A DNA stretch of 22,587 nucleotides from a virus. Lineage: Duplodnaviria > Heunggongvirae > Uroviricota > Caudoviricetes. Below the pieces are notes generated by a model. The model was given only the letters and a program-made list of their open reading frames with translations, made no database searches and was not told the DNA's origin. Shown here in pieces: positions 10,203-22,587 of this stretch. Positions within the stretch are counted from its first letter, which is position 1. Each line of letters opens with the position of its first letter. The DNA lies in IMG/VR virus record IMGVR_UViG_2547132415_000022, positions 1 to 22,587 of that record. One strand, 5' to 3'. The position numbers were made by a program, and so were the translations under genes.

Positions 10203-10375
10203 TGTCAGGAGTCCTGAATAGTGATTAGAGGAGTCACATGTCGGCATCAGTTTCCCGACGATGCGCATCCTCCGCCATCAGTCCCGGATGGCTTATCACT
10301 GACACAACAGCACCTTAGCGAATCGCGGGGCGCGACTCAGTAGCCTTGCCGTGTATTCATCACGGCGAGGTATTC
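10203..10375. promoter_or_regulatory. Divergent late-promoter region between O (leftward) and P (rightward)
   Basis: 173 bp intergenic region between divergently transcribed late operons, where P2 has its Ogr-dependent late promoters. Contains the perfect palindrome TCAGGAGTCCTGA at 10205-10217. I found no perfect TGT-N12-ACA Ogr site by eye, so the exact promoter elements are not assigned. Confidence 0.5.
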
Positions 10376-12148
10376 ATGACCATCACCACAGACACCACTC
10401 TTTTACACGACCCGCGTCGTCAGGCGGCGCTGCTGTACTGGCAGGGATTTTCCGTGCCGCAGATTGCCGCCATGTTGCAGATGAAACGCCCGACGGTGCA
10501 GAGCTGGAAACAGCGCGACGGCTGGGACAGCGTTGCCCCCATCAGCCGTGTCGAAATGAGTCTGGAAGCGCGGCTGACCCAGCTCATCATCAAACCGCAG
10601 AAAACCGGCGGTGATTTCAAGGAAATTGACCTGCTGGGACGCCAGATTGAACGACTGGCACGGGTAAACCGCTACAGCCAGACCGGCAACGAGGCAGACC
10701 TTAATCCGAACGTCGCTAACCGCAACAAAGGCGGGCGGCGCAAACCGAAAAAGAATTTTTTCAGTGACGAGGCCATCGAAAAGCTGGAGCAGATTTTCTT
10801 TGAGCAGTCTTTCGACTATCAGTTGCACTGGTATCGTGCCGGGCTTGAGCACCGCATCCGCGATATCCTGAAATCCCGCCAGATTGGCGCGACGTTTTAT
10901 TTTTCCCGCGAGGCGCTGCTGCGCGCCCTGAAAACCGGCCATAACCAGATTTTTCTGTCGGCCAGTAAAACGCAGGCGTATGTGTTCCGTGAATACATCA
11001 TCGCCTTTGCCCGTCTGGTTGACGTTGACCTGACCGGTGACCCGATTGTCCTGGGCAATAACGGCGCAAAACTGATTTTTCTCGGCACCAACTCCAACAC
11101 CGCACAGAGCCATAACGGCGACCTGTACGTCGACGAGATTTTCTGGATCCCGAATTTTCAGGTACTGCGTAAGGTGGCATCAGGTATGGCCTCACAGAGT
11201 CACCTGCGCTCGACCTATTTCTCCACCCCGTCCACGCTGGCGCACGACGCCTACCCGTTCTGGTCGGGTGAACTGTTCAACCGGGGACGCGCCAGCGCCG
11301 CCGAACGTGTGGAAATCGACGTCAGTCATAACGCCCTTGCCGGTGGTCTTCTCTGTGCGGACGGCCAGTGGCGGCAGATTGTCACCATTGAGGACGCCCT
11401 GAAAGGCGGCTGCACATTGTTCGACATTGAGCAGCTCAAACGCGAAAACAGCGCCGACGATTTTAAAAACCTGTTCATGTGTGAATTTGTTGACGACAAG
11501 GCATCGGTGTTCCCGTTCGAGGAGCTGCAACGCTGCATGGTCGACACGCTGGAAGAATGGGAAGACTACGCGCCGTTTGCCGCCAATCCGTTCGGCTCCC
11601 GCCCGGTATGGATTGGTTACGACCCGTCACACCGTGGCGACAGCGCCGGATGCGTGGTGCTGGCACCGCCGGTGGTGCCCGGTGGCAAATTTAGAATACT
11701 TGAGCGTCACCAGTGGAAAGGCATGGACTTTGCCACCCAGGCGGAGTCCATCCGCAAACTCACCGAAAAATACAACGTCGAATACATCGGTATTGATGCC
11801 ACCGGCCTCGGTGTCGGCGTGTTCCAGCTCGTGCGCTCGTTCTATCCCGCCGCGCGCGATATCCGCTACACGCCGGAAATGAAAACCGCAATGGTGCTCA
11901 AGGCCAAAGACGTCATCCGCCGTGGCTGTCTGGAATATGACGTCAGCGCCACCGACATCACCAGCTCGTTCATGGCTATCCGCAAGACCATGACCAGCAG
12001 CGGACGCAGCGCCACCTATGAGGCCAGCCGCAGCGAGGAAGCCAGCCACGCCGACCTCGCCTGGGCAACCATGCACGCCCTGTTAAATGAGCCACTCACC
12101 GCCGGTATCAGCACTCCGCTGACATCCACCATTCTGGAGTTTTACTGA
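10376..12148 (+). CDS. P: Terminase large (ATPase) subunit P
   Basis: ORF-track frame starts at 10346; the probable start is the ATG at 10376 (MTITTDTTLLHDPRRQ) with a GAGGT RBS, giving 590 aa as in P2 gpP. Its stop overlaps the Q start (TGATG). Confidence 0.9.
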   Translation: MTITTDTTLLHDPRRQAALLYWQGFSVPQIAAMLQMKRPTVQSWKQRDGWDSVAPISRVEMSLEARLTQLIIKPQKTGGDFKEIDLLGRQIERLARVNRYSQTGNEADLNPNVANRNKGGRRKPKKNFFSDEAIEKLEQIFFEQSFDYQLHWYRAGLEHRIRDILKSRQIGATFYFSREALLRALKTGHNQIFLSASKTQAYVFREYIIAFARLVDVDLTGDPIVLGNNGAKLIFLGTNSNTAQSHNGDLYVDEIFWIPNFQVLRKVASGMASQSHLRSTYFSTPSTLAHDAYPFWSGELFNRGRASAAERVEIDVSHNALAGGLLCADGQWRQIVTIEDALKGGCTLFDIEQLKRENSADDFKNLFMCEFVDDKASVFPFEELQRCMVDTLEEWEDYAPFAANPFGSRPVWIGYDPSHRGDSAGCVVLAPPVVPGGKFRILERHQWKGMDFATQAESIRKLTEKYNVEYIGIDATGLGVGVFQLVRSFYPAARDIRYTPEMKTAMVLKAKDVIRRGCLEYDVSATDITSSFMAIRKTMTSSGRSATYEASRSEEASHADLAWATMHALLNEPLTAGISTPLTSTILEFY

Positions 12149-13182
12149 TGAGCAAGAAAATAGGGAAAACACCGCGACCTGCGGCAAAAACAATCACCGC
12201 CAGCGCCCCGAAAATGGAAGCATTCACCTTTGGTGAGCCGGTGCCGGTACTTGACCGCCGTGACATTCTGGATTACGTCGAGTGCATCAGTAACGGCAGA
12301 TGGTATGAGCCGCCGGTCAGCTTTACCGGTCTGGCAAAAAGCCTGCGTGCTGCCGTGCATCACAGCTCACCGATTTACGTCAAACGTAATATTCTGGCTT
12401 CAACGTTTATCCCGCACCCGTGGCTTTCCCAGCAGGATTTCAGCCGCTTTGTGCTGGATTTTCTGGTTTTCGGTAATGCGTTTCTGGAAAAGCGTTACAG
12501 CACCACCGGTAAGGTCATCAGACTGGAAACCTCACCGGCAAAATATACCCGCCGTGGCGTGGAGGAGGATGTTTACTGGTGGGTGCCGTCCTTCAACGAG
12601 CCGACAGCCTTCGCGCCCGGCTCCGTGTTTCACCTGCTGGAGCCGGATATCAATCAGGAGCTGTACGGCCTGCCGGAATATCTCAGCGCCCTTAACTCTG
12701 CCTGGCTGAATGAGTCGGCCACGCTGTTCCGCCGCAAGTATTACGAAAACGGCGCTCATGCCGGATACATCATGTATGTCACCGATGCCGTGCAGGATCG
12801 CAACGATATCGAAATGCTTCGCGAAAACATGGTCAAGTCGAAAGGCCGCAACAACTTTAAAAATCTGTTTCTTTATGCCCCGCAGGGGAAAGCCGACGGC
12901 ATTAAAATTATCCCGCTCAGTGAAGTGGCAACGAAGGACGATTTTTTTAATATCAAAAAAGCCAGCGCCGCTGACCTGCTGGACGCGCACCGCATCCCCT
13001 TTCAGTTGATGGGCGGCAAGCCGGAGAACGTCGGGTCGCTGGGTGATATTGAGAAAGTGGCAAAGGTCTTTGTCCGCAATGAGCTTATCCCGCTACAGGA
13101 CAGGATCCGCGAGATAAACGGCTGGCTCGGTCAGGAGGTCATCCGCTTTAAAAACTACTCACTGGACACTGACAACGGCTGA
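12148..13182 (+). CDS. Q: Portal protein Q
   Basis: 344 aa ORF, same length as P2 gpQ as I recall it; last gene before cos, as in P2. Confidence 0.9.
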   Translation: MSKKIGKTPRPAAKTITASAPKMEAFTFGEPVPVLDRRDILDYVECISNGRWYEPPVSFTGLAKSLRAAVHHSSPIYVKRNILASTFIPHPWLSQQDFSRFVLDFLVFGNAFLEKRYSTTGKVIRLETSPAKYTRRGVEEDVYWWVPSFNEPTAFAPGSVFHLLEPDINQELYGLPEYLSALNSAWLNESATLFRRKYYENGAHAGYIMYVTDAVQDRNDIEMLRENMVKSKGRNNFKNLFLYAPQGKADGIKIIPLSEVATKDDFFNIKKASAADLLDAHRIPFQLMGGKPENVGSLGDIEKVAKVFVRNELIPLQDRIREINGWLGQEVIRFKNYSLDTDNG

Positions 13183-13187
13183 ACATC

Positions 13188-13209
13188 GCCGCCTGCGGGC
13201 GGCTTTTTT
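13188..13209 (+). terminator. Rho-independent terminator downstream of Q
   Basis: GCCGCC-TGCG-GGCGGC stem-loop followed by TTTTTT, starting 6 nt after the Q stop codon. Confidence 0.6.
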
Positions 13210-13338
13210 ACACCCTCACATGCTCACCACCGCACAAAACCCCCCGCAGACACACCAACGCCCCGGCGCACAACCCAAACGCCGTCACGACGCGCTGAGA
13301 CGCTGAAAAAATAAAATCAGCACCACCGCCAGCGCGCA

Positions 13339-13357
13339 GTGCTTTCCCCGCCTCGCC
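13339..13357 (-). other. cos site, 19-nt cohesive-end sequence
   Basis: gtgctttccccgcctcgcc is the reverse complement of GGCGAGGCGGGGAAAGCAC, which I recall as the P2 cohesive end; the adjacent ~60 bp toward Q also match my recollection of the P2 left end in reverse complement. Confidence 0.7.
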
Positions 13358-13687
13358 CGCCCGCTTCATGGGGCGGTTTTGATGCAATACATGAGCATCG
13401 TAATGCCATATCGTGACAGGATTATAGAACATGAAGGTATACTAACTTACACATGCAAAAAAACGCACACTCAGGCATTCTCTTTGGAATACAATATGGT
13501 AAAAATATGATCATTTGAAGCTGCATATCCGTGCAGATTGAAATCAATGATGCTGCCCCTTCGTTAAGACAGCCAGGCCGCAATCTCTTGAGCTCAAGTG
13601 GACATCTAAGACAGAAAAACAATTTAAAGGCAAAGTTTTCGTAATGGTATCTTTGTCACAGCACACGCTAAAAAGGAACTAAACCTC

Positions 13688-14752
13688 ATGAGCACTCAGC
13701 AAGTCCTCAACATCCCTACAGCCGTATCGCAAGCGACCATCGAAAAATGGTTGAAAGGACTGGAACAGACAACGGAATTAGCCTTTTTTCGCCGTGTTGG
13801 CGGGCGGCATGGCTTCAATGTTACGAGCCGCTGGGCAAGTACATTGGATAACTTGAATAAAACTCTGAATGACCCATCGAAGCAAGGTACGCCTGCAAAC
13901 TTTTCAAATCTCCGTTTGATTACGTTAAAAATAATCACTAGCGTAAACCATTATTATTCAATTGATGGTATTAAATCAGGAACCATTAATTTAATACCAA
14001 ATATAATCAACTACCCTCACCTCGATAAAACATTTAGCTCAGTATTTCCAATAAAACTTGATGATAATACAGGACTTCCTTCGACTCCTGGGCATTTCAT
14101 TACTTCCATCGAAAAAATGGGGGATGGTATTGCTGTAATATATTCCTATATTATTTTAAGAAAAATCCAAGGAAGGAGTAAGCTACGTAGCAATCAATAT
14201 CCAGAGCAGTACTTCAACACTGTTTTCATCCCTAATGATTTAAGCCGTATAGAATATCGGGTTGATAAATCACTAGGTAAAAGAGCGTCTGAAAAAGCGA
14301 TGGCAGATTTGCGCGCAAAATTTAATGAATTACTCGTGGAACTTAATATTAAGTTAGCTGTTGAAACTATAAATTTCTACAAAGCAATTTCCAATATTTA
14401 CCTTGACAAACAATATGGAAGACTTGTTCAGGTTAATTTCCTTGATCCAAATGGAGATGAGGATGCTGTTCTTCGTTGCAGAACAGACCCCAATTATGAT
14501 GCCCGTTATCGCGAGGTTGTATCTAAAACTCAGAACGGAACACCTCGCTCATTGACCCTTGAAGTTTCTGGCGTTGCAGTGCGATTAGATAGTAAAGTTG
14601 CAAACGAAACAATTTCAAATGAAATTGGTTTTGAACCCAGCAAAACTGATTGGTCTACAAACAAATTTTGTGGGGATTTTTATTTTACACAAACAGCAGA
14701 TCATCAGGTGCATTATGGGGTGATAAATGATTTACTCACAAGAGCGAAATAA
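13688..14752 (+). CDS. Hypothetical protein, 354 aa; first gene of an AT-rich cargo cassette; no recognisable catalytic motif
   Basis: ATG at 13688 with an AGGAA RBS 9 nt upstream; strongly AT-rich (roughly mid-30s percent GC by eye) against a >50 percent GC backbone; not a P2 gene; no Walker A or other motif found on inspection. Confidence 0.7.
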   Translation: MSTQQVLNIPTAVSQATIEKWLKGLEQTTELAFFRRVGGRHGFNVTSRWASTLDNLNKTLNDPSKQGTPANFSNLRLITLKIITSVNHYYSIDGIKSGTINLIPNIINYPHLDKTFSSVFPIKLDDNTGLPSTPGHFITSIEKMGDGIAVIYSYIILRKIQGRSKLRSNQYPEQYFNTVFIPNDLSRIEYRVDKSLGKRASEKAMADLRAKFNELLVELNIKLAVETINFYKAISNIYLDKQYGRLVQVNFLDPNGDEDAVLRCRTDPNYDARYREVVSKTQNGTPRSLTLEVSGVAVRLDSKVANETISNEIGFEPSKTDWSTNKFCGDFYFTQTADHQVHYGVINDLLTRAK

Positions 14753-15161
14753 AAAAATGCGCTCATTAGTGTATAAACAAAGAGTACTCCTGGAGAATGC
14801 CGGAAGCTCTTCTGTTTTCATAAATAATGATTCTCACATATATTATACAAATTTACTAGAATATGTAGAGGGTGATCTTGATCGTAATATTTATACAATC
14901 CCAGTATTACGAAAAGCCATAAAAACTGACAATTATGAACATTTGCTACGAGTTGTTCAATTTTTTAGTAGCAATACCTCCTGTTTATTTAACGTTAAAT
15001 ATTGCTACGAACTAGAAAACATGGAGTTTGAGGACATACAAGCTGATGAATATACCAACTATATATTAAACGGAGTTGAACCTGTAACTGCCAATGGTTC
15101 TGAAATTGAAGACTTCAATCCAAAATATCTTTCATTTTATTGCATAATAAACCTGGATTGA
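14727..15161 (+). CDS. Hypothetical small acidic protein, 144 aa (134 aa if it starts at the ATG at 14757); second cargo gene
   Basis: Overlaps the 3' end of the first cargo gene by 26 nt, suggesting translational coupling; same AT-rich composition; no recognisable motif. Confidence 0.6.
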   Translation: MIYSQERNKKMRSLVYKQRVLLENAGSSSVFINNDSHIYYTNLLEYVEGDLDRNIYTIPVLRKAIKTDNYEHLLRVVQFFSSNTSCLFNVKYCYELENMEFEDIQADEYTNYILNGVEPVTANGSEIEDFNPKYLSFYCIINLD

Positions 15162-15166
15162 CTGTC

Positions 15167-16027
15167 ATGAACAAACAACAAATCACATGTGAGTTAGGCA
15201 AAAGGGTTCATTTTGAAGATGAAGCGAGTTTTATTGAAACATTATACTCGGATATAGAAGTCATAATAAAACTAATGGAGCAATCTAGTGACAAGTATTA
15301 TTGTGATGATGAAGATAAACTAAGCCATACAATTGTAGCCTCTCTTGTACACCTAGGTTACGATGCAACCGAACAAACAAAAAAAAATGGAAGTGTGGAC
15401 ATAACCGTTCGTCCGAAAAATGGAGGATATACATGGATTGCTGAAGCAAAAATCGGATACGGGAACCAAAAAATATTCGAGGGGCTACTTCAGTTGCTTA
15501 CTCGCTATGTTAAAAGAGATAATCATGCAGGCATGGTTATCTATTATCAAAAATCAAAGTCATCTTATCATTTCAAACAATGGCTGAAATACATATACAA
15601 CCATGAGTGGAAGGATTATTGTACAAAGAAAGGGTCATTAAAAAAAGCGACTCCGCTACTTTCTCATTTAAAAAGTACGGTTTGTCCGAAAGTCAAACAA
15701 GGCTGTTGTTATGCTGACATTGATGTCATCCAACCTTCGACTGATGGTCTAAAACTTCGCTGCTTCTATATTGACGTGCATCATGACCCAATTGACAGTA
15801 GTGGTTTAAAGAATAAGTCAATCGCCTTTGGTCAAGCCCAAAATAGAATTAGAGATTTATATCACTTATGGAAGACAGGACAGTTCGACGGCAGTATGAT
15901 AGATGAATTATTTGAAGAAATAAAAATATATCATAGCAATGAACTTGACGAAGAATATGAAGATGAAGATGAAGATGAAGATGAAGATGAAGATGAAGAT
16001 GAAGATTCGAATATAAACTCAAAATGA
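15167..16027 (+). CDS. Hypothetical protein with a PD-(D/E)xK nuclease-like motif and a poly-acidic C-terminal tail; third cargo gene (ORF track starts it at a TTG at 15140)
   Basis: ATG at 15167 lies 5 nt after the stop of cargo gene 2. Protein contains GSVDITVRPKNGGYTWIAEAKIG, a D-x15-E-x-K pattern in a strand-like context resembling the restriction-endonuclease fold active site. C-terminus is EEYEDEDEDEDEDEDEDEDSNINSK. Confidence 0.65.
   Translation: MNKQQITCELGKRVHFEDEASFIETLYSDIEVIIKLMEQSSDKYYCDDEDKLSHTIVASLVHLGYDATEQTKKNGSVDITVRPKNGGYTWIAEAKIGYGNQKIFEGLLQLLTRYVKRDNHAGMVIYYQKSKSSYHFKQWLKYIYNHEWKDYCTKKGSLKKATPLLSHLKSTVCPKVKQGCCYADIDVIQPSTDGLKLRCFYIDVHHDPIDSSGLKNKSIAFGQAQNRIRDLYHLWKTGQFDGSMIDELFEEIKIYHSNELDEEYEDEDEDEDEDEDEDEDSNINSK
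15959..16006 (+). repeat. Perfect hexanucleotide microsatellite (GAAGAT)x8 inside cargo gene 3, encoding a poly-Glu-Asp tail
   Basis: Eight uninterrupted GAAGAT copies read directly from the sequence; in-frame. Confidence 0.95.
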
Positions 16028-16040
16028 ACACCAAGAATCA

Positions 16041-16074
16041 CCCCATTAAGTTTAGACATCCTAACTTGATGGGG
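16041..16074 (+). terminator. Hairpin downstream of cargo gene 3, possible terminator between the convergent cargo operon and gene A
   Basis: CCCCATTAAGTT / AACTTGATGGGG, a 12-bp stem with one G-U mismatch and a 10-nt loop, starting 14 nt after the stop; no strong U-tract follows, so terminator function is uncertain. Confidence 0.3.
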
Positions 16075-16161: not shown

Positions 16162-18432
16162 TTAATTAGGAAAAACACTCCCAGTTGGAATTTTTTTAAA
16201 TTTATATTTCCTCCCATCGAAACATACTGTCGCACCGCGTGCTAATACCTGTGGTTCCCATTGATTCGGCGTAATACCCTCCTGAGCCAACTCGAATCTT
16301 ATACGTGGCGTCTGTTCCCGTTCAGCTTTTGTCATTCGTCCTGAGGGCGCTATCTGATAAGGTTTTAATGGCTCACAGCTCTTTTGCTGGCGATTTGGTC
16401 GTGGCGCATCGTGTTTTAGTGCGCATCTGAGCACCGTCACGACTTCAGGGTCATCCCAGCCGATAACCCCGCGCTCAATCAGATTCAACACCGCTGCTGC
16501 TTGCTCAGAAGGTATGGATGTCATAGCAGGATCGCCACCGCTAGTTAGCTTTCCACAGTTATTGACAGGACTCCGAGGCGCGGCGATGCCGCTTTTTAAA
16601 GTCAAAGGCTCAACGACCGGAACTTTCGGCACAATGCGCCAGTCCGTCGTTCTGGTGATATGAATATGACGCGCGCCGAGATGCGGCGCGTAAATGCCGA
16701 CCACCCTCTCGACCTCTTCCTCGTACTCGTTAACGTCATCCGACGGGCTACGGGCGACTCTGACAGTCTGACAATCGCGCGGGACATTTGCCCCACCCTG
16801 CGCGCTGATATACAACGCAAAATCACCACTGTCTGCGGCGGCGCGTGCAGCCTCGACGCGCTCGTCAAACTCATCAGCAATGCTGACGCCGCGCGGCAAT
16901 TTGCGTAGTTCACGGTAAGCCCCCATTGTCGGCAGACCAACCGTTTTAAATTGCGGGATGCGCCACGTTGACGCCCATGCGGTAACAGCCGCAGCAGTGT
17001 CTTTCAGCGGCCTGCCGGTATCGTTATCGAGCTGACCATCCAGTGCATAGCCGTCGATGTTTTTTGAGATGTATTTCGCGATATACCCCGCAGCACCGCC
17101 CCGGTTAAGGTGTTTTGCCTGAAAACGGTTTCGCGCGGCTCCTCTTTCATCGCCATCCTCTTTGAGCGCATAGCGACGCATGATTTCGATAATCTGGTTA
17201 CGCTGGCGCGGATTACAAAAAAGCATCATATGCCAGTGCGGCGTTCCGTCGTGGTGTGGCTCGACGACACGCAAACCGTAGACCTGTAAATCATTATCCT
17301 TGAATGCCGTGCGCATCAGGCTCCAGATACGGCAGAGATAACGCTGCGCATCCTTTGGATTAAATGCCTCATCGTTCCAGCCGTGATTTAGCTGGACGGT
17401 TTTACTTTCGCCTTTTCTGACCTGACGTGTCGGGTGATACTTTGACGGCGCGGTCAGCGTGATAAACATCCCCACATCACCCTCTGCTGCGGCGTAACGC
17501 TCAATACCGGCAATGGTGTTCATCAGCTCCATCCGGCGAATTTCAGGATTAGAAATACTGCCCATCACCTTACTGATAAGGTCGATGCGCTCGCCGGTTT
17601 CCCTGTTTTCGAGATCACACGATTTAAGAAATTCCAGATTTGCCTGGCGGCGTGCACGCACATCACGAATGGCATGTTTACTGGCATAAGGAGAACGGTC
17701 TTTATTGACCTCCCCGACAGCAATCAGTAACGCCTCATGCCAGCGCATACGCTGGCCTTTAAGCTGATGGGTCCACCACTCATCGTTAAACAGACGGGCA
17801 ATGGCAGAATATGCCTGCCTCGTGGTCATCTGCCCTTTACGGTATTTTTTCCAGTAGAGCGGGGAAATATTGAAAGCACGTGCAGCACCAGCAACATGAC
17901 CATAGAGGTGAGCCTGCGCCTCATCCGTAAACAGCGATTCTTTTTCGCCATGCGCATCCCCCCAGGCATCGCAGAGTTCCTCATACATCATGAAAAGCTG
18001 CGATGAGATACGGGCGGCAAACTTTTTCAGCTCCTTGTCATTCATCCCCGGCAGACGCGCATAATGGTCACGCTCTGCCAGAAACAGCAACGACGCGTCG
18101 GTGTTCATTTTATGGCGCTGATTCACACGCTCAATGCGCGGCCATAAACGACGCTGAAAAGTGGATGTGAGAAAATAAAACCCGTGCACCGGGCTTTTAT
18201 TGCGCCGGATGTAGTCATAGCGTGACGTAAACAGCGAGCGCAAAAAGTAAGGCAGGCGGTTAATCGTGGATAAAACACCTTGCACCTGACGCATCTCGTC
18301 ACGTGTAAGGGGTCTTTCGCGCCCGACAGCCTCGCGTGGCGCGTTCCATGCATAAGCACCGGTAAACGCCTTACCGGTGCCTGCGGCAAATGCTGACGGA
18401 GGGACAAAACGCCCGGAGGCTTTAACGGCCAT
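16162..18432 (-). CDS. A: Replication initiation endonuclease A (rolling-circle initiator)
   Basis: ORF-track frame 16162..18474 (TTG start); probable start is the ATG at 18430-18432 (MAVKASGRFVPPSAFAAGTGK), as I recall for P2 gpA. Contains the HUH-like PHWHMMLF and the paired-tyrosine YIAKYISK motifs expected of this nicking enzyme. Confidence 0.9.
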   Translation of the reverse strand: MAVKASGRFVPPSAFAAGTGKAFTGAYAWNAPREAVGRERPLTRDEMRQVQGVLSTINRLPYFLRSLFTSRYDYIRRNKSPVHGFYFLTSTFQRRLWPRIERVNQRHKMNTDASLLFLAERDHYARLPGMNDKELKKFAARISSQLFMMYEELCDAWGDAHGEKESLFTDEAQAHLYGHVAGAARAFNISPLYWKKYRKGQMTTRQAYSAIARLFNDEWWTHQLKGQRMRWHEALLIAVGEVNKDRSPYASKHAIRDVRARRQANLEFLKSCDLENRETGERIDLISKVMGSISNPEIRRMELMNTIAGIERYAAAEGDVGMFITLTAPSKYHPTRQVRKGESKTVQLNHGWNDEAFNPKDAQRYLCRIWSLMRTAFKDNDLQVYGLRVVEPHHDGTPHWHMMLFCNPRQRNQIIEIMRRYALKEDGDERGAARNRFQAKHLNRGGAAGYIAKYISKNIDGYALDGQLDNDTGRPLKDTAAAVTAWASTWRIPQFKTVGLPTMGAYRELRKLPRGVSIADEFDERVEAARAAADSGDFALYISAQGGANVPRDCQTVRVARSPSDDVNEYEEEVERVVGIYAPHLGARHIHITRTTDWRIVPKVPVVEPLTLKSGIAAPRSPVNNCGKLTSGGDPAMTSIPSEQAAAVLNLIERGVIGWDDPEVVTVLRCALKHDAPRPNRQQKSCEPLKPYQIAPSGRMTKAEREQTPRIRFELAQEGITPNQWEPQVLARGATVCFDGRKYKFKKIPTGSVFPN

Positions 18433-18697
18433 ATGAGCCAAAAGCCTCTGAACAACGCTTGCTGAGTTGCTCAACCTGCACGTTTAAATCAGCAAAAGAC
18501 TTTGCGCTTCCGGTCAGAATATCGTGATGCATCAGGCCGGAAACGAGCTGGCTTAATTTCGGGTAATAACCAACCACCGACAGCCATTCCTGACCGGCGT
18601 TTTTACCGCTTTCCGCTCTCTTTTTCTCGTGGAGAATAAACTGAAAGCTGTCACTGGTAACGACATAACGTTCGCCAATTTCAATACGAATACTCAT
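18422..18697 (-). CDS. Small early-operon protein, P2 orf83-like
   Basis: 91 aa ORF immediately upstream of A, overlapping its start by 11 nt; occupies the orf83 position of the P2 early operon. Confidence 0.6.
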   Translation of the reverse strand: MSIRIEIGERYVVTSDSFQFILHEKKRAESGKNAGQEWLSVVGYYPKLSQLVSGLMHHDILTGSAKSFADLNVQVEQLSKRCSEAFGSYGR

Positions 18698-20990: not shown

Positions 20991-22004
20991 ATGGCAATCA
21001 AAAAACTCGATGATGGTCGATATGAAGTGGACATCCGCCCTACTGGACGTAATGGAAAACGCATCCGTAGGAAGTTTGATAAGAAAAGCGAAGCTGTCGC
21101 TTTCGAGAAATACACGTTGTACAACCACCACAATAAAGAATGGCTATCAAAACCAACAGACAAGCGACGTCTGTCGGAGCTGACACAGATCTGGTGGGAT
21201 TTAAAGGGTAAACACGAAGAGCATGGGAAATCTAATCTTGGAAAAATTGAAATCTTCACAAAAATAACGAATGACCCATGCGCATTTCAAATTACGAAAT
21301 CGCTTATCAGCCAGTACTGCGCCACCCGAAGAAGTCAGGGTATTAAACCTTCGAGTATCAATCGTGATTTAACATGTATTAGCGGCATGTTTACAGCCCT
21401 GATTGAAGCGGAGTTATTCTTTGGTGAGCACCCTATCAGAGGGACAAAAAGGCTTAAGGAGGAAAAACCAGACACAGGCTATCTCACGCAGGAAGAAATT
21501 GCCTTACTGCTTGCTGCTCTTGACGGCGACAACAAAAAGATTGCGATTCTTTGCCTGAGTACTGGAGCACGTTGGGGAGAAGCAGCTCGTTTGAAAGCAG
21601 AAAATATCATCCATAACCGCGTCACGTTTGTTAAAACGAAAACAAACAAACCACGCACCGTCCCGATCTCAGAGGCTGTTGCCAAAATGATCGCGGATAA
21701 CAAACGAGGTTTTTTATTCCCTGATGCTGATTACCCTCGCTTCAGACGAACAATGAAAGCAATAAAACCGGATTTGCCAATGGGGCAAGCCACACATGCA
21801 CTAAGGCACAGCTTTGCCACTCATTTCATGATTAATGGAGGAAGTATTATCACGCTACAACGGATACTAGGTCACACGCGGATTGAGCAAACTATGGTTT
21901 ACGCTCATTTTGCGCCAGAGTACCTTCAGGACGCCATTTCTCTTAATCCGCTAAGAGGTGGTACTGAGGCCGAGAGTGTCCACACAGTGTCCACAGTAGA
22001 GTAA
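20991..22004 (+). CDS. int: Tyrosine integrase
   Basis: 337 aa ORF, same length as P2 Int as I recall it; GGAGGG RBS; contains the catalytic-region motifs HALRHSFATH and HTRIEQTMVYAH (His-x-x-Arg and the active-site Tyr). Confidence 0.92.
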   Translation: MAIKKLDDGRYEVDIRPTGRNGKRIRRKFDKKSEAVAFEKYTLYNHHNKEWLSKPTDKRRLSELTQIWWDLKGKHEEHGKSNLGKIEIFTKITNDPCAFQITKSLISQYCATRRSQGIKPSSINRDLTCISGMFTALIEAELFFGEHPIRGTKRLKEEKPDTGYLTQEEIALLLAALDGDNKKIAILCLSTGARWGEAARLKAENIIHNRVTFVKTKTNKPRTVPISEAVAKMIADNKRGFLFPDADYPRFRRTMKAIKPDLPMGQATHALRHSFATHFMINGGSIITLQRILGHTRIEQTMVYAHFAPEYLQDAISLNPLRGGTEAESVHTVSTVE

Positions 22005-22269: not shown

Positions 22270-22587
22270 TCACTCTCCACATTTGAATGTCAGACGAGCG
22301 ACACCATGTAATCCTACACCTTCTGTCTTCAGCTCAACTATTTGCATTTTTTTGCCCTGAGTAACACAGAAATGAGTTGCATCATTTTTTACTATATTTT
22401 CTGCACCAGATATTCTACCCCTGGCTAAAGAAGCTTCGGCTTCGGTGTAGTATTGGTTATCGAGTTTACGCTGAATATTACTTTTATATGCAAGACCAAA
22501 TTTACCGATACTTGTCTCATCATTATGCACAGCACAACCAGACATAATAAAAATACTAATTAATGATATAGCAGCTATCTTTTTCAT
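22270..22587 (-). CDS. Host-encoded small lipoprotein (105 aa); start codon at the last three bases of the window
   Basis: Signal peptide with lipobox (MKKIAAISLISIFIMSGC); AT-rich; lies outside the att core and so is presumed chromosomal. Not identified further. Confidence 0.55.
   Translation of the reverse strand: MKKIAAISLISIFIMSGCAVHNDETSIGKFGLAYKSNIQRKLDNQYYTEAEASLARGRISGAENIVKNDATHFCVTQGKKMQIVELKTEGVGLHGVARLTFKCGE

Follow-up and report, generated by a model that had tools for sequence, protein, structure and literature searches.

Why should a gene in an Escherichia coli prophage end in eight perfect copies of a hexanucleotide, and what does the number of copies mean for the protein they encode? 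The question is raised by g3, the last of three co-directional genes (g1, g2 and g3) that occupy a 2.6-kb island of ~35% GC, against a background of ~55%, in the window analysed here, a 22,587-nt viral sequence from IMG/VR (record IMGVR_UViG_2547132415_000022). The tract, (GAAGAT)x8, codes for an acidic C-terminal tail on a putative nuclease. We consider it probable that it is an in-frame hexanucleotide variable-number tandem-repeat (VNTR) locus, driven by slippage and situated in a disordered, non-conserved tail whose length varies in a near-neutral manner. Coordinates of all features are collected in Table 1.

A perfect hexanucleotide array in frame with g3

A first-pass annotation, made from the letters of the window and its open reading frames (ORFs), had reported a perfect (GAAGAT)x8 microsatellite at 15959-16006, and this is confirmed both by reading of the sequence and by Tandem Repeats Finder. 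The program returns an array at 15953-16006 (period 6, 9.0 copies, 97% matches, score 101). No other strong tandem array occurs in the 22.6-kb window, and this one consists of short head-to-tail units of high identity, eight perfect and one degenerate, as in a coding VNTR. The TAT of the degenerate unit precedes the GAAGAT array at every locus compared. The repeat is far beyond chance: at period 6 the longest self-match extends over 44 bases, whereas none of 500 shuffles of either the window or the island gave more than 10-11. The same annotation had the tract encoding the acidic tail of g3, and residues 265-280 are (Glu-Asp)x8, within a segment (residues 256-286) of net charge -19. The tract is in frame with the ORF at 15167-16027, and the (Glu-Asp)x8 is followed by SNINSK and the stop codon. 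All 16 tract codons are GAA or GAT (P ~0.006 under the codon usage of the three island genes, GAA 34/GAG 12 and GAT 35/GAC 14), so the regularity lies at the DNA level, beyond that of the protein.

Other readings of the same letters were tried. In the remaining plus-strand frames the tract either reads as repeated KM or stops at once. Two ORFs on the minus strand span it (15849-16034 and 15931-16059, with poly-HL and poly-S) and are by-products of the repeat. That the tract acts as DNA or RNA, or through the opposite strand, was rejected, since it lies inside a gene under purifying selection.

Copy number among E. coli loci

Repeat slippage in units of six nucleotides had been suggested to leave the frame intact and to let the tail differ in length between strains. 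Both parts of the suggestion hold among the homologous loci compared, and an identical copy number everywhere is clearly not what is found. Census DNA was obtained from exact-protein contig look-ups and pattern scans, most of the sequences being short-read assemblies and metagenomes, and removal of duplicates of A23 and ZH177 left 24 independent E. coli copies, with tract lengths of 4, 5, 6, 7, 8 or 9 units. Perfect arrays of four, five and six units were found in five, seven and four independent sources, respectively. Of the five sources with seven units, two have a perfect array and three an array in which a single unit is mutated (AAACAT, GAAAAT or GAAGAC); eight units occur in two sources (the window and ZH177), and a perfect array of nine units in one. 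The pattern scans, of metagenomes and IMG/VR, contributed only three of the loci, and a near-identity search of the phage genome collection with the island gave no match.

Length differences between alleles are always whole units (multiples of 6 nt) with identical flanks, and the interrupted alleles stay in register. All copies examined are in frame with the common end SNINSK or TNINSK, and no truncated g3 allele was found among them. The island is present in two of 5426 complete E. coli genomes, ZH177 (8 units) and A23 (5 units), too few for a census from that collection alone; aligned to the 8-unit sequence, A23 shows a clean 18-nt gap and is identical in the rest. The 90% protein cluster likewise contains members of 278, 280 and 284 aa that are otherwise identical, and in this cluster 35 contigs carry the 4-unit allele and 31 the 5-unit allele, from several sources.

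The sequence upstream of the tract provides a measure of how fast these changes occur. From the start of g1 to the tract (2271 nt), 26 sequences are of equal length with zero indels, and only seven variable sites are seen among 25 sequences. On the single nucleotide polymorphism (SNP) haplotype identical to the window, tracts of 5, 6, 7, 8 and 9 units occur, the five lengths on one SNP-identical haplotype displaying the hypermutability and homoplasy of a coding VNTR; haplotype 14981T, one SNP from the window, carries 4, 5, 6 and 7 units, and haplotype 15415T carries 4 and 5. Because haplotypes carry several lengths and lengths recur across haplotypes, at least five length changes are required under any scenario, and at least eight without recombination, versus seven substitutions in 2271 nt. 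The 48-nt locus thus changes about as often as the surrounding 2.3 kb, and we infer that its rate of change exceeds the per-site substitution rate by roughly three orders of magnitude, as a lower bound.

Within g3 itself, a second simple repeat contrasts with the hexamer tract, whose length varies freely in frame. A homopolymer of nine A residues (15379-15387) forms part of the codons for the conserved motif QTKKNG, shortly upstream of the catalytic-motif residue D78, and a slip of +/-1 there would truncate the predicted nuclease. The length of this run is constant in 26/26 copies, and the divergent lineage L008 interrupts it (A to C at 15379).

The g3 protein and its acidic tail

The start of g3 is placed at ATG 15167, as annotated in RefSeq relatives, with TTG 15140 as a possible alternative. 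Among 53 aligned homologues, residues E49, D78, E93-A94-K95 and Q109 are invariant and D50 is nearly so, which gives g3 a PD-(D/E)xK signature. The AlphaFold model is confident (predicted local distance difference test, pLDDT, 87; predicted template modelling score, pTM, 0.81), and the predicted fold has the restriction-endonuclease-like alpha-beta-beta-beta-alpha-beta core of the PD-(D/E)xK superfamily. Motif and predicted fold together point to g3 as a putative PD-(D/E)xK nuclease-fold protein. When the g3 family was used as a profile against PDB sequences, zero matches came back even at E <= 10; the protein matches PHROG phrog_9664 (function not known) at E 7.5e-74 and, partially, the PADLOC candidate PDC-S54 at E 2.8e-7.

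The tail differs sharply from the rest of the protein, residues 1-255 having a net charge of +2 (isoelectric point, pI, 8.0) versus -19 for residues 256-286. The last predicted helices span residues 242-255 and 259-263 (short, ELDEE), and nothing structured is predicted beyond. In blocks of ten residues from residue 251, the pLDDT of the AlphaFold2 model falls from ~79 to 52, 50 and 44, and beyond residue ~264 it is ~50 or lower, so the tail is predicted to be mostly disordered. A strongly acidic, disordered segment, as expected of an autoinhibitory or DNA-mimic tail, is therefore present (net -19; pLDDT ~44-52). The region after the last conserved helix is also the most variable part of the g3 family, with 2 to ~28 residues, and the longest tail in the family alignment is that of the window.

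Between the L008 lineage and the window, the g3 core (15167-15955) shows 11 nonsynonymous and 6 synonymous differences, a ratio of nonsynonymous to synonymous rates (dN/dS) of 0.43, against 0.03 for g1 and 0.06 for g2. The numbers are small and hint that the predicted nuclease is evolving faster than g1 and g2 at short range, between two E. coli lineages.

Origin of the tract

Among the homologues compared, only those of the E. coli lineage carry the GAAGAT array. In the Enterobacter orthologue, at 83% nucleotide identity, a different, 9-nt repeat, (GAAGATGTC)x2.7, occupies the site, and in Enterobacter sp. ECC-019 (locus L018, 4780-4837) this (GAAGATGTC)x2.7 encodes EDVEDVED. Cronobacter has irregular acidic codons there (GAT GAT GAA GAT GAA GAA AAT GAT), and a repeat at the tract site is absent in Serratia, Rahnella, Phytobacter, Rouxiella, Atlantibacter and Shewanella. 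In the closer clades the tails are acidic but irregular, and in distant clades they end in ...HPEYFV or in a basic ...KVKK. The tail position seems prone to the independent birth of repeats. The restriction of the array to one lineage and its uniform codons suggest that it expanded recently from a short GAA-GAT seed.

The first-pass annotation had held that homologues lacking the tail altogether, with no functional difference, would speak against a role for tail length. Homologues with no acidic tail do exist (...HPEYFV, ...KVKK), with the same three-gene cassette, which bears out one half of that condition.

Explanations for the length variation

In the slippage reading that we favour, whole GAAGAT units would be gained and lost, most likely by slipped-strand mispairing during replication, in an array that would be young and would have arisen in the E. 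coli lineage by growth of a short GAA-GAT seed. Length changes would be tolerated, and the frame is never broken, because each unit spans two codons and the folded domain does not include the tail; because length changes are tolerated, many alleles would coexist in the species. A precedent is E. coli O157, whose VNTRs, with a unit of 6-7 bp, gain or lose complete units at rates of 4.4e-5 to 1.8e-3 per generation (PMC3777172). Constraint on the tail is probably weak, since it is poorly conserved and g1 and g2 do not co-vary with it, and we take the variation in its length to be mostly near-neutral rather than adaptive.

Several points weigh against this reading. Alleles have only 4-9 units, with none at 0-3 or above nine among the copies examined, and selection on tail length, not only mutational dynamics, could set these limits. 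Some acidic tail is kept in most close homologues and, given this retention, may be functional. Recombination between alleles could be the source of part of the homoplasy, slippage being deduced rather than observed. The allele counts are not population frequencies, as the look-ups favour long contigs and distinct neighbourhoods, and the anti-phage role of the cassette is read from location only, the PADLOC match being partial and weak.

That tail length could tune activity had been part of the first-pass suggestion, and the charge of the tail makes plausible an adaptive explanation in which the poly-(Glu-Asp) segment serves as an intra- or intermolecular DNA mimic that autoinhibits the nuclease, its length setting the activation threshold. 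The tail would occupy the DNA-binding surface of the slightly basic g3 domain or of the basic g1, and slippage would be the source of reversible, heritable variants in which the strength of defence is weighed against toxicity to the host itself. The opposed charges (tail net -19; folded domain +2, pI 8.0; g1, pI 9.1), the acidic tail of some sort in most close homologues and the bounded allele range (4-9) all agree with such a role, and there are precedents for it, in that disordered DNA-site-occluding segments autoinhibit defence complexes, e.g. the trigger loop of DISARM DrmA (PMC9142583), negatively charged DNA mimics block nucleases (PMC12904381), and the number of in-frame repeats in E. 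coli tolA alters phenotypes including infection by phage fd (PMC3477136). We nevertheless regard it as unlikely, as the tail is the least conserved part of g3 and is absent or basic in distant members with the same cassette, several close homologues stop after only ...DD, g1 and g2 show no co-variation with tail length, and the uniform codons suggest that the ED tract expanded by mutation not long ago, and not that it was selected for over the long term. It is decidedly unlikely that the ED tract works as a rheostat of a prophage immune nuclease, graded, reversible and heritable, in which a disordered DNA-mimicking tail autoinhibits g3 or the putatively RdgC-like g1; there is a similarly slim chance that slippage keeps yielding sub-clones with differing activation thresholds, as an in-frame analogue of contingency loci that acts on the balance of phage defence against autoimmunity.

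Two further explanations concern the source of the variation rather than its effect. Homologous recombination or gene conversion between existing alleles in co-resident P2-like prophages could place identical lengths on several SNP haplotypes, as is seen; cassettes of the P2 hotspot are swapped between phages (PMC9122126; PMC13586616), and contraction of the tolA repeat is RecA-dependent (PMC3477136). Recombination, however, only reshuffles alleles, and the six lengths still need at least five length-creating events; whole-unit change in a 6-nt array is a classic slippage signature (PMC3777172), and the flanks are virtually identical, without a mosaic signal. We therefore judge it very improbable as the main source. 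That the copy-number differences are artefacts of assembly or sequencing is scarcely credible, even though the census comprises mostly short-read assemblies and metagenomes and assemblers can collapse tandem repeats: at 24-54 nt the tract is below typical read length, the two complete genomes differ (5 vs 8 units), the 4- and 5-unit proteins are each found on 31-35 contigs from several sources, and the differences are clean whole units between identical flanks, with interrupted alleles in register.

Read as a slippage-driven VNTR, the tract adds a new, well-documented case to the in-frame VNTRs of E. coli, which are of a known kind. Its length could be used as a fine-scale marker to follow the P2-like prophage cassette, and the tract illustrates the birth and fluctuation of disordered low-complexity tails. 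The natural series of 4-9-unit alleles would be ready-made experimental material and, if tail length does modulate nuclease activation, the locus would offer a simple natural system for the tuning of a defence threshold.

Comparison with known repeats, nucleases and acidic tails

In Haemophilus, Neisseria and Campylobacter, contingency loci act as on/off switches through frameshift or altered promoter spacing. The tract resembles them in being a hypermutable simple repeat in a gene probably involved in host-parasite conflict, with heterogeneity attributable to slippage. Unlike them, it has a unit of 6 nt and all of its alleles are in frame, so that it could act only in a graded fashion; with no frameshift, no on/off switching and no truncated allele among the copies examined, assignment to the phase-variable contingency loci was rejected.

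The g3 core has the predicted fold and the E...D...ExK pattern of the type II enzymes BamHI, BglII, BstYI and OkrAI, and of the PD-(D/E)xK defence nucleases McrC, HamA and NucC. It has no methyltransferase partner, its partners being a putatively RdgC-like protein and a small acidic protein, and it has no sequence-level match to any solved structure. To our knowledge, none of these proteins carries a poly-ED tail. Acidic disordered tails that regulate DNA-binding proteins are familiar from HMGB1 and SSB. A strongly negative, flexible segment on or at a DNA-binding or nuclease module is also shared with the DISARM DrmA trigger loop (PMC9142583) and with Ocr-type DNA mimics (PMC12904381). For the DrmA loop, Ocr, HMGB1 and SSB, a regulatory contact has been demonstrated, whereas for the g3 tail it is purely hypothetical, and none of those segments is encoded by a perfect, length-polymorphic DNA repeat.

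Among the closest parallels are the hexanucleotide loci used in multiple-locus VNTR analysis (MLVA) of E. coli (O157 loci; PMC3777172), which share with the tract tandem units of 6-7 bp, gains and losses of whole units, many alleles in close strains and a rate of change far above that of point substitution. The present tract differs in its location in a rare prophage accessory cassette (2/5426 complete E. coli genomes) and in its low copy number (4-9); no description of it as a typing marker was found in literature searches. Other in-frame repeats of E. coli (tolA, 15/18 bp; mutL, CTGGCG x3; ahpC, TCT x4; PMC3477136) also have units that are multiples of three and polymorphic copy numbers, and in tolA the copy number modulates phenotypes including phage infection (PMC3477136). 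Those repeats lie inside a functional domain and their effect has been measured, whereas the GAAGAT tract lies in a C-terminal appendage predicted to be disordered.

The three-gene cassette

Table 1. Features of the window, given as positions of the 22,587-nt sequence.
Feature	Position	Strand	Remarks
P2-type portal gene gpQ	12148-13182	+	Left hotspot border; from the ORF list; in ZH177 and A23 the gene in the corresponding place is annotated as a phage portal protein
g1	13688-14752	+	354-aa basic protein, pI 9.1; putative DNA-binding or sensing component
g2	14727-15161	+	Small acidic protein, 144 aa, pI ~4.5-4.7; without recognisable domain
g3	15167-16027	+	286 aa; PD-(D/E)xK / restriction-endonuclease-like fold (predicted); putative nuclease effector
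C-terminal tail coding region of g3	15932-16024	+	Residues 256-286, HSNELDEEY(ED)8SNINSK; net charge -19
Degenerate unit GAATAT (Glu-Tyr)	15953-15958	+	Fixed left border of the array; one mismatch; abuts (GAAGAT)x8
(GAAGAT)x8, variable tract	15959-16006	+	From sequence reading; codes (Glu-Asp)x8, g3 residues E265-D280
Stable hairpin, possible operon terminator	16041-16074	+	14 nt past the g3 stop; weak U-tract; -20.5 kcal/mol, z = -3.3 vs shuffles
P2-type replication gene A (gpA)	16162-18474	-	Right hotspot border; PF05840 Phage_GPA, E 4.4e-123
Integrase	20991-22004		From the ORF list

The repeat is perhaps less interesting than the cassette that carries it, a conserved trio of a putatively RdgC-like, a small acidic and a PD-(D/E)xK protein in a proven defence hotspot. 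The model of g1 is confident (pLDDT 87, pTM 0.87), and its fold is putatively RdgC-like. The start of g2 is ambiguous, either ATG 14727 (144 aa, overlapping g1 by 26 nt) or ATG 14757 (134 aa), the latter being 4 nt past the g1 stop codon, and public gene calls use both. No family in Pfam, NCBIfam or PADLOC matched g1, g2 or g3 above threshold, and matches of cassette proteins to DUF7164, TiaS_TCKD and CAS_III-E_sigma were dismissed as sub-threshold noise. In PADLOC, g1 and g2 have no match and g3 only the partial one to PDC-S54, so that no described defence model applies. The hairpin downstream of g3 was not called by a consensus terminator scan.

Co-linear cassettes are present in five other genera, in the P2 slot in Serratia and Rahnella, and elsewhere in the genome in Rouxiella, Atlantibacter and Shewanella. 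Species representatives of GTDB gave six cassette loci, none of them from E. coli, and these were used for conservation, not for the allele census. The cassette of Enterobacter sp. ECC-019 also lies outside the P2 slot, with an IS3-family transposase upstream and a protein kinase gene downstream. Against the Enterobacter copy, the cassette genes have a dN/dS of ~0.05 (g2: 0.05), which marks them as functional and under strong purifying selection. Across tail lengths g1 and g2 are identical, and hence there is no sign of co-adaptation with the length of the tail.

The cassette is also intact, and identical in sequence, in visibly decayed prophages (ZH177, L003 and L030). In ZH177 (locus L001, 1095-1649 and 5662-6859), baseplate V, terminase, gpA and a regulator are truncated; in L003 and L030 the portal is shortened to 315 aa, and in L003 it adjoins an ogr-like gene. 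This suggests that selection retains the cassette after phage death.

Prophage setting and the P2 hotspot

Judged by its genes, the window is a P2-like prophage. Terminase and portal ORFs occupy 10346-13182, PF04860 is found in the portal of related loci, and gpA is the longest ORF, with homologues annotated at 756 aa. Between gpQ and gpA lies the old/tin hotspot of P2, which Rousset et al. 2022 (PMC9122126) showed to harbour a store of anti-phage systems. A low-GC cassette between these two genes is in the location of a P2-hotspot defence system, and from this location only, it is a candidate anti-phage defence system.

The cassette corresponds to system #145, 'DUF5939 | DpnII-MboI', recorded with 14 occurrences between gpQ and gpA (PMC9122126, Table S5B), and the RefSeq proteins WP_004016844, WP_024166900 and WP_004016846 appear in Table S5A of the same study. 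System #145 has the same three proteins, with g1 and g2 identical to those of the window; its g3 representative has 6 ED units, versus 8 here. Sequences and accessions of the cassette are absent from Table S2 of that study, which covers the cloned systems. An identity with the validated, P1-protective 3HP system ('hp + hp + hp'; pFR109, from E. coli E1114) was rejected, as the proteins given in Table S2A are unrelated. A 2026 paper on P2/P4 hotspots in Nucleic Acids Research (PMC13586616) makes no mention of DUF5939, DpnII or tandem repeats.

Some minor features of the window may be added. The non-coding region from portal to g1 (13183-13687) holds two strong GC-rich, terminator-like hairpins (13188-13203 and 13357-13376) and has its counterpart in the conserved cos-proximal region of the P2 fragments cloned in Rousset Table S2A. 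For a cassette promoter, the best -35/-10 candidate on the plus strand is at 13484-13511. After the integrase there is a 105-aa minus-strand ORF (22270-22587), and the sizes and spacing of the two match those of integrase and yegR in ZH177 (L001, 6975-8570), which suggests that the prophage is at the same yegR-side attachment site in the E. coli chromosome.

Another P2-hotspot gene has a comparable repeat. In the 2TM+1TM+TIR system of phage AC1 (Rousset Table S2A), protein 1 starts MGKQGKGKGKGN, encoded by GGCAAAGGCAAAGGCAAAGGCAAC, and a further hotspot cassette therefore contains an in-frame hexamer repeat. Short repeats of this kind in coding sequence may be recurrent in the AT-rich accessory genes of the hotspot.

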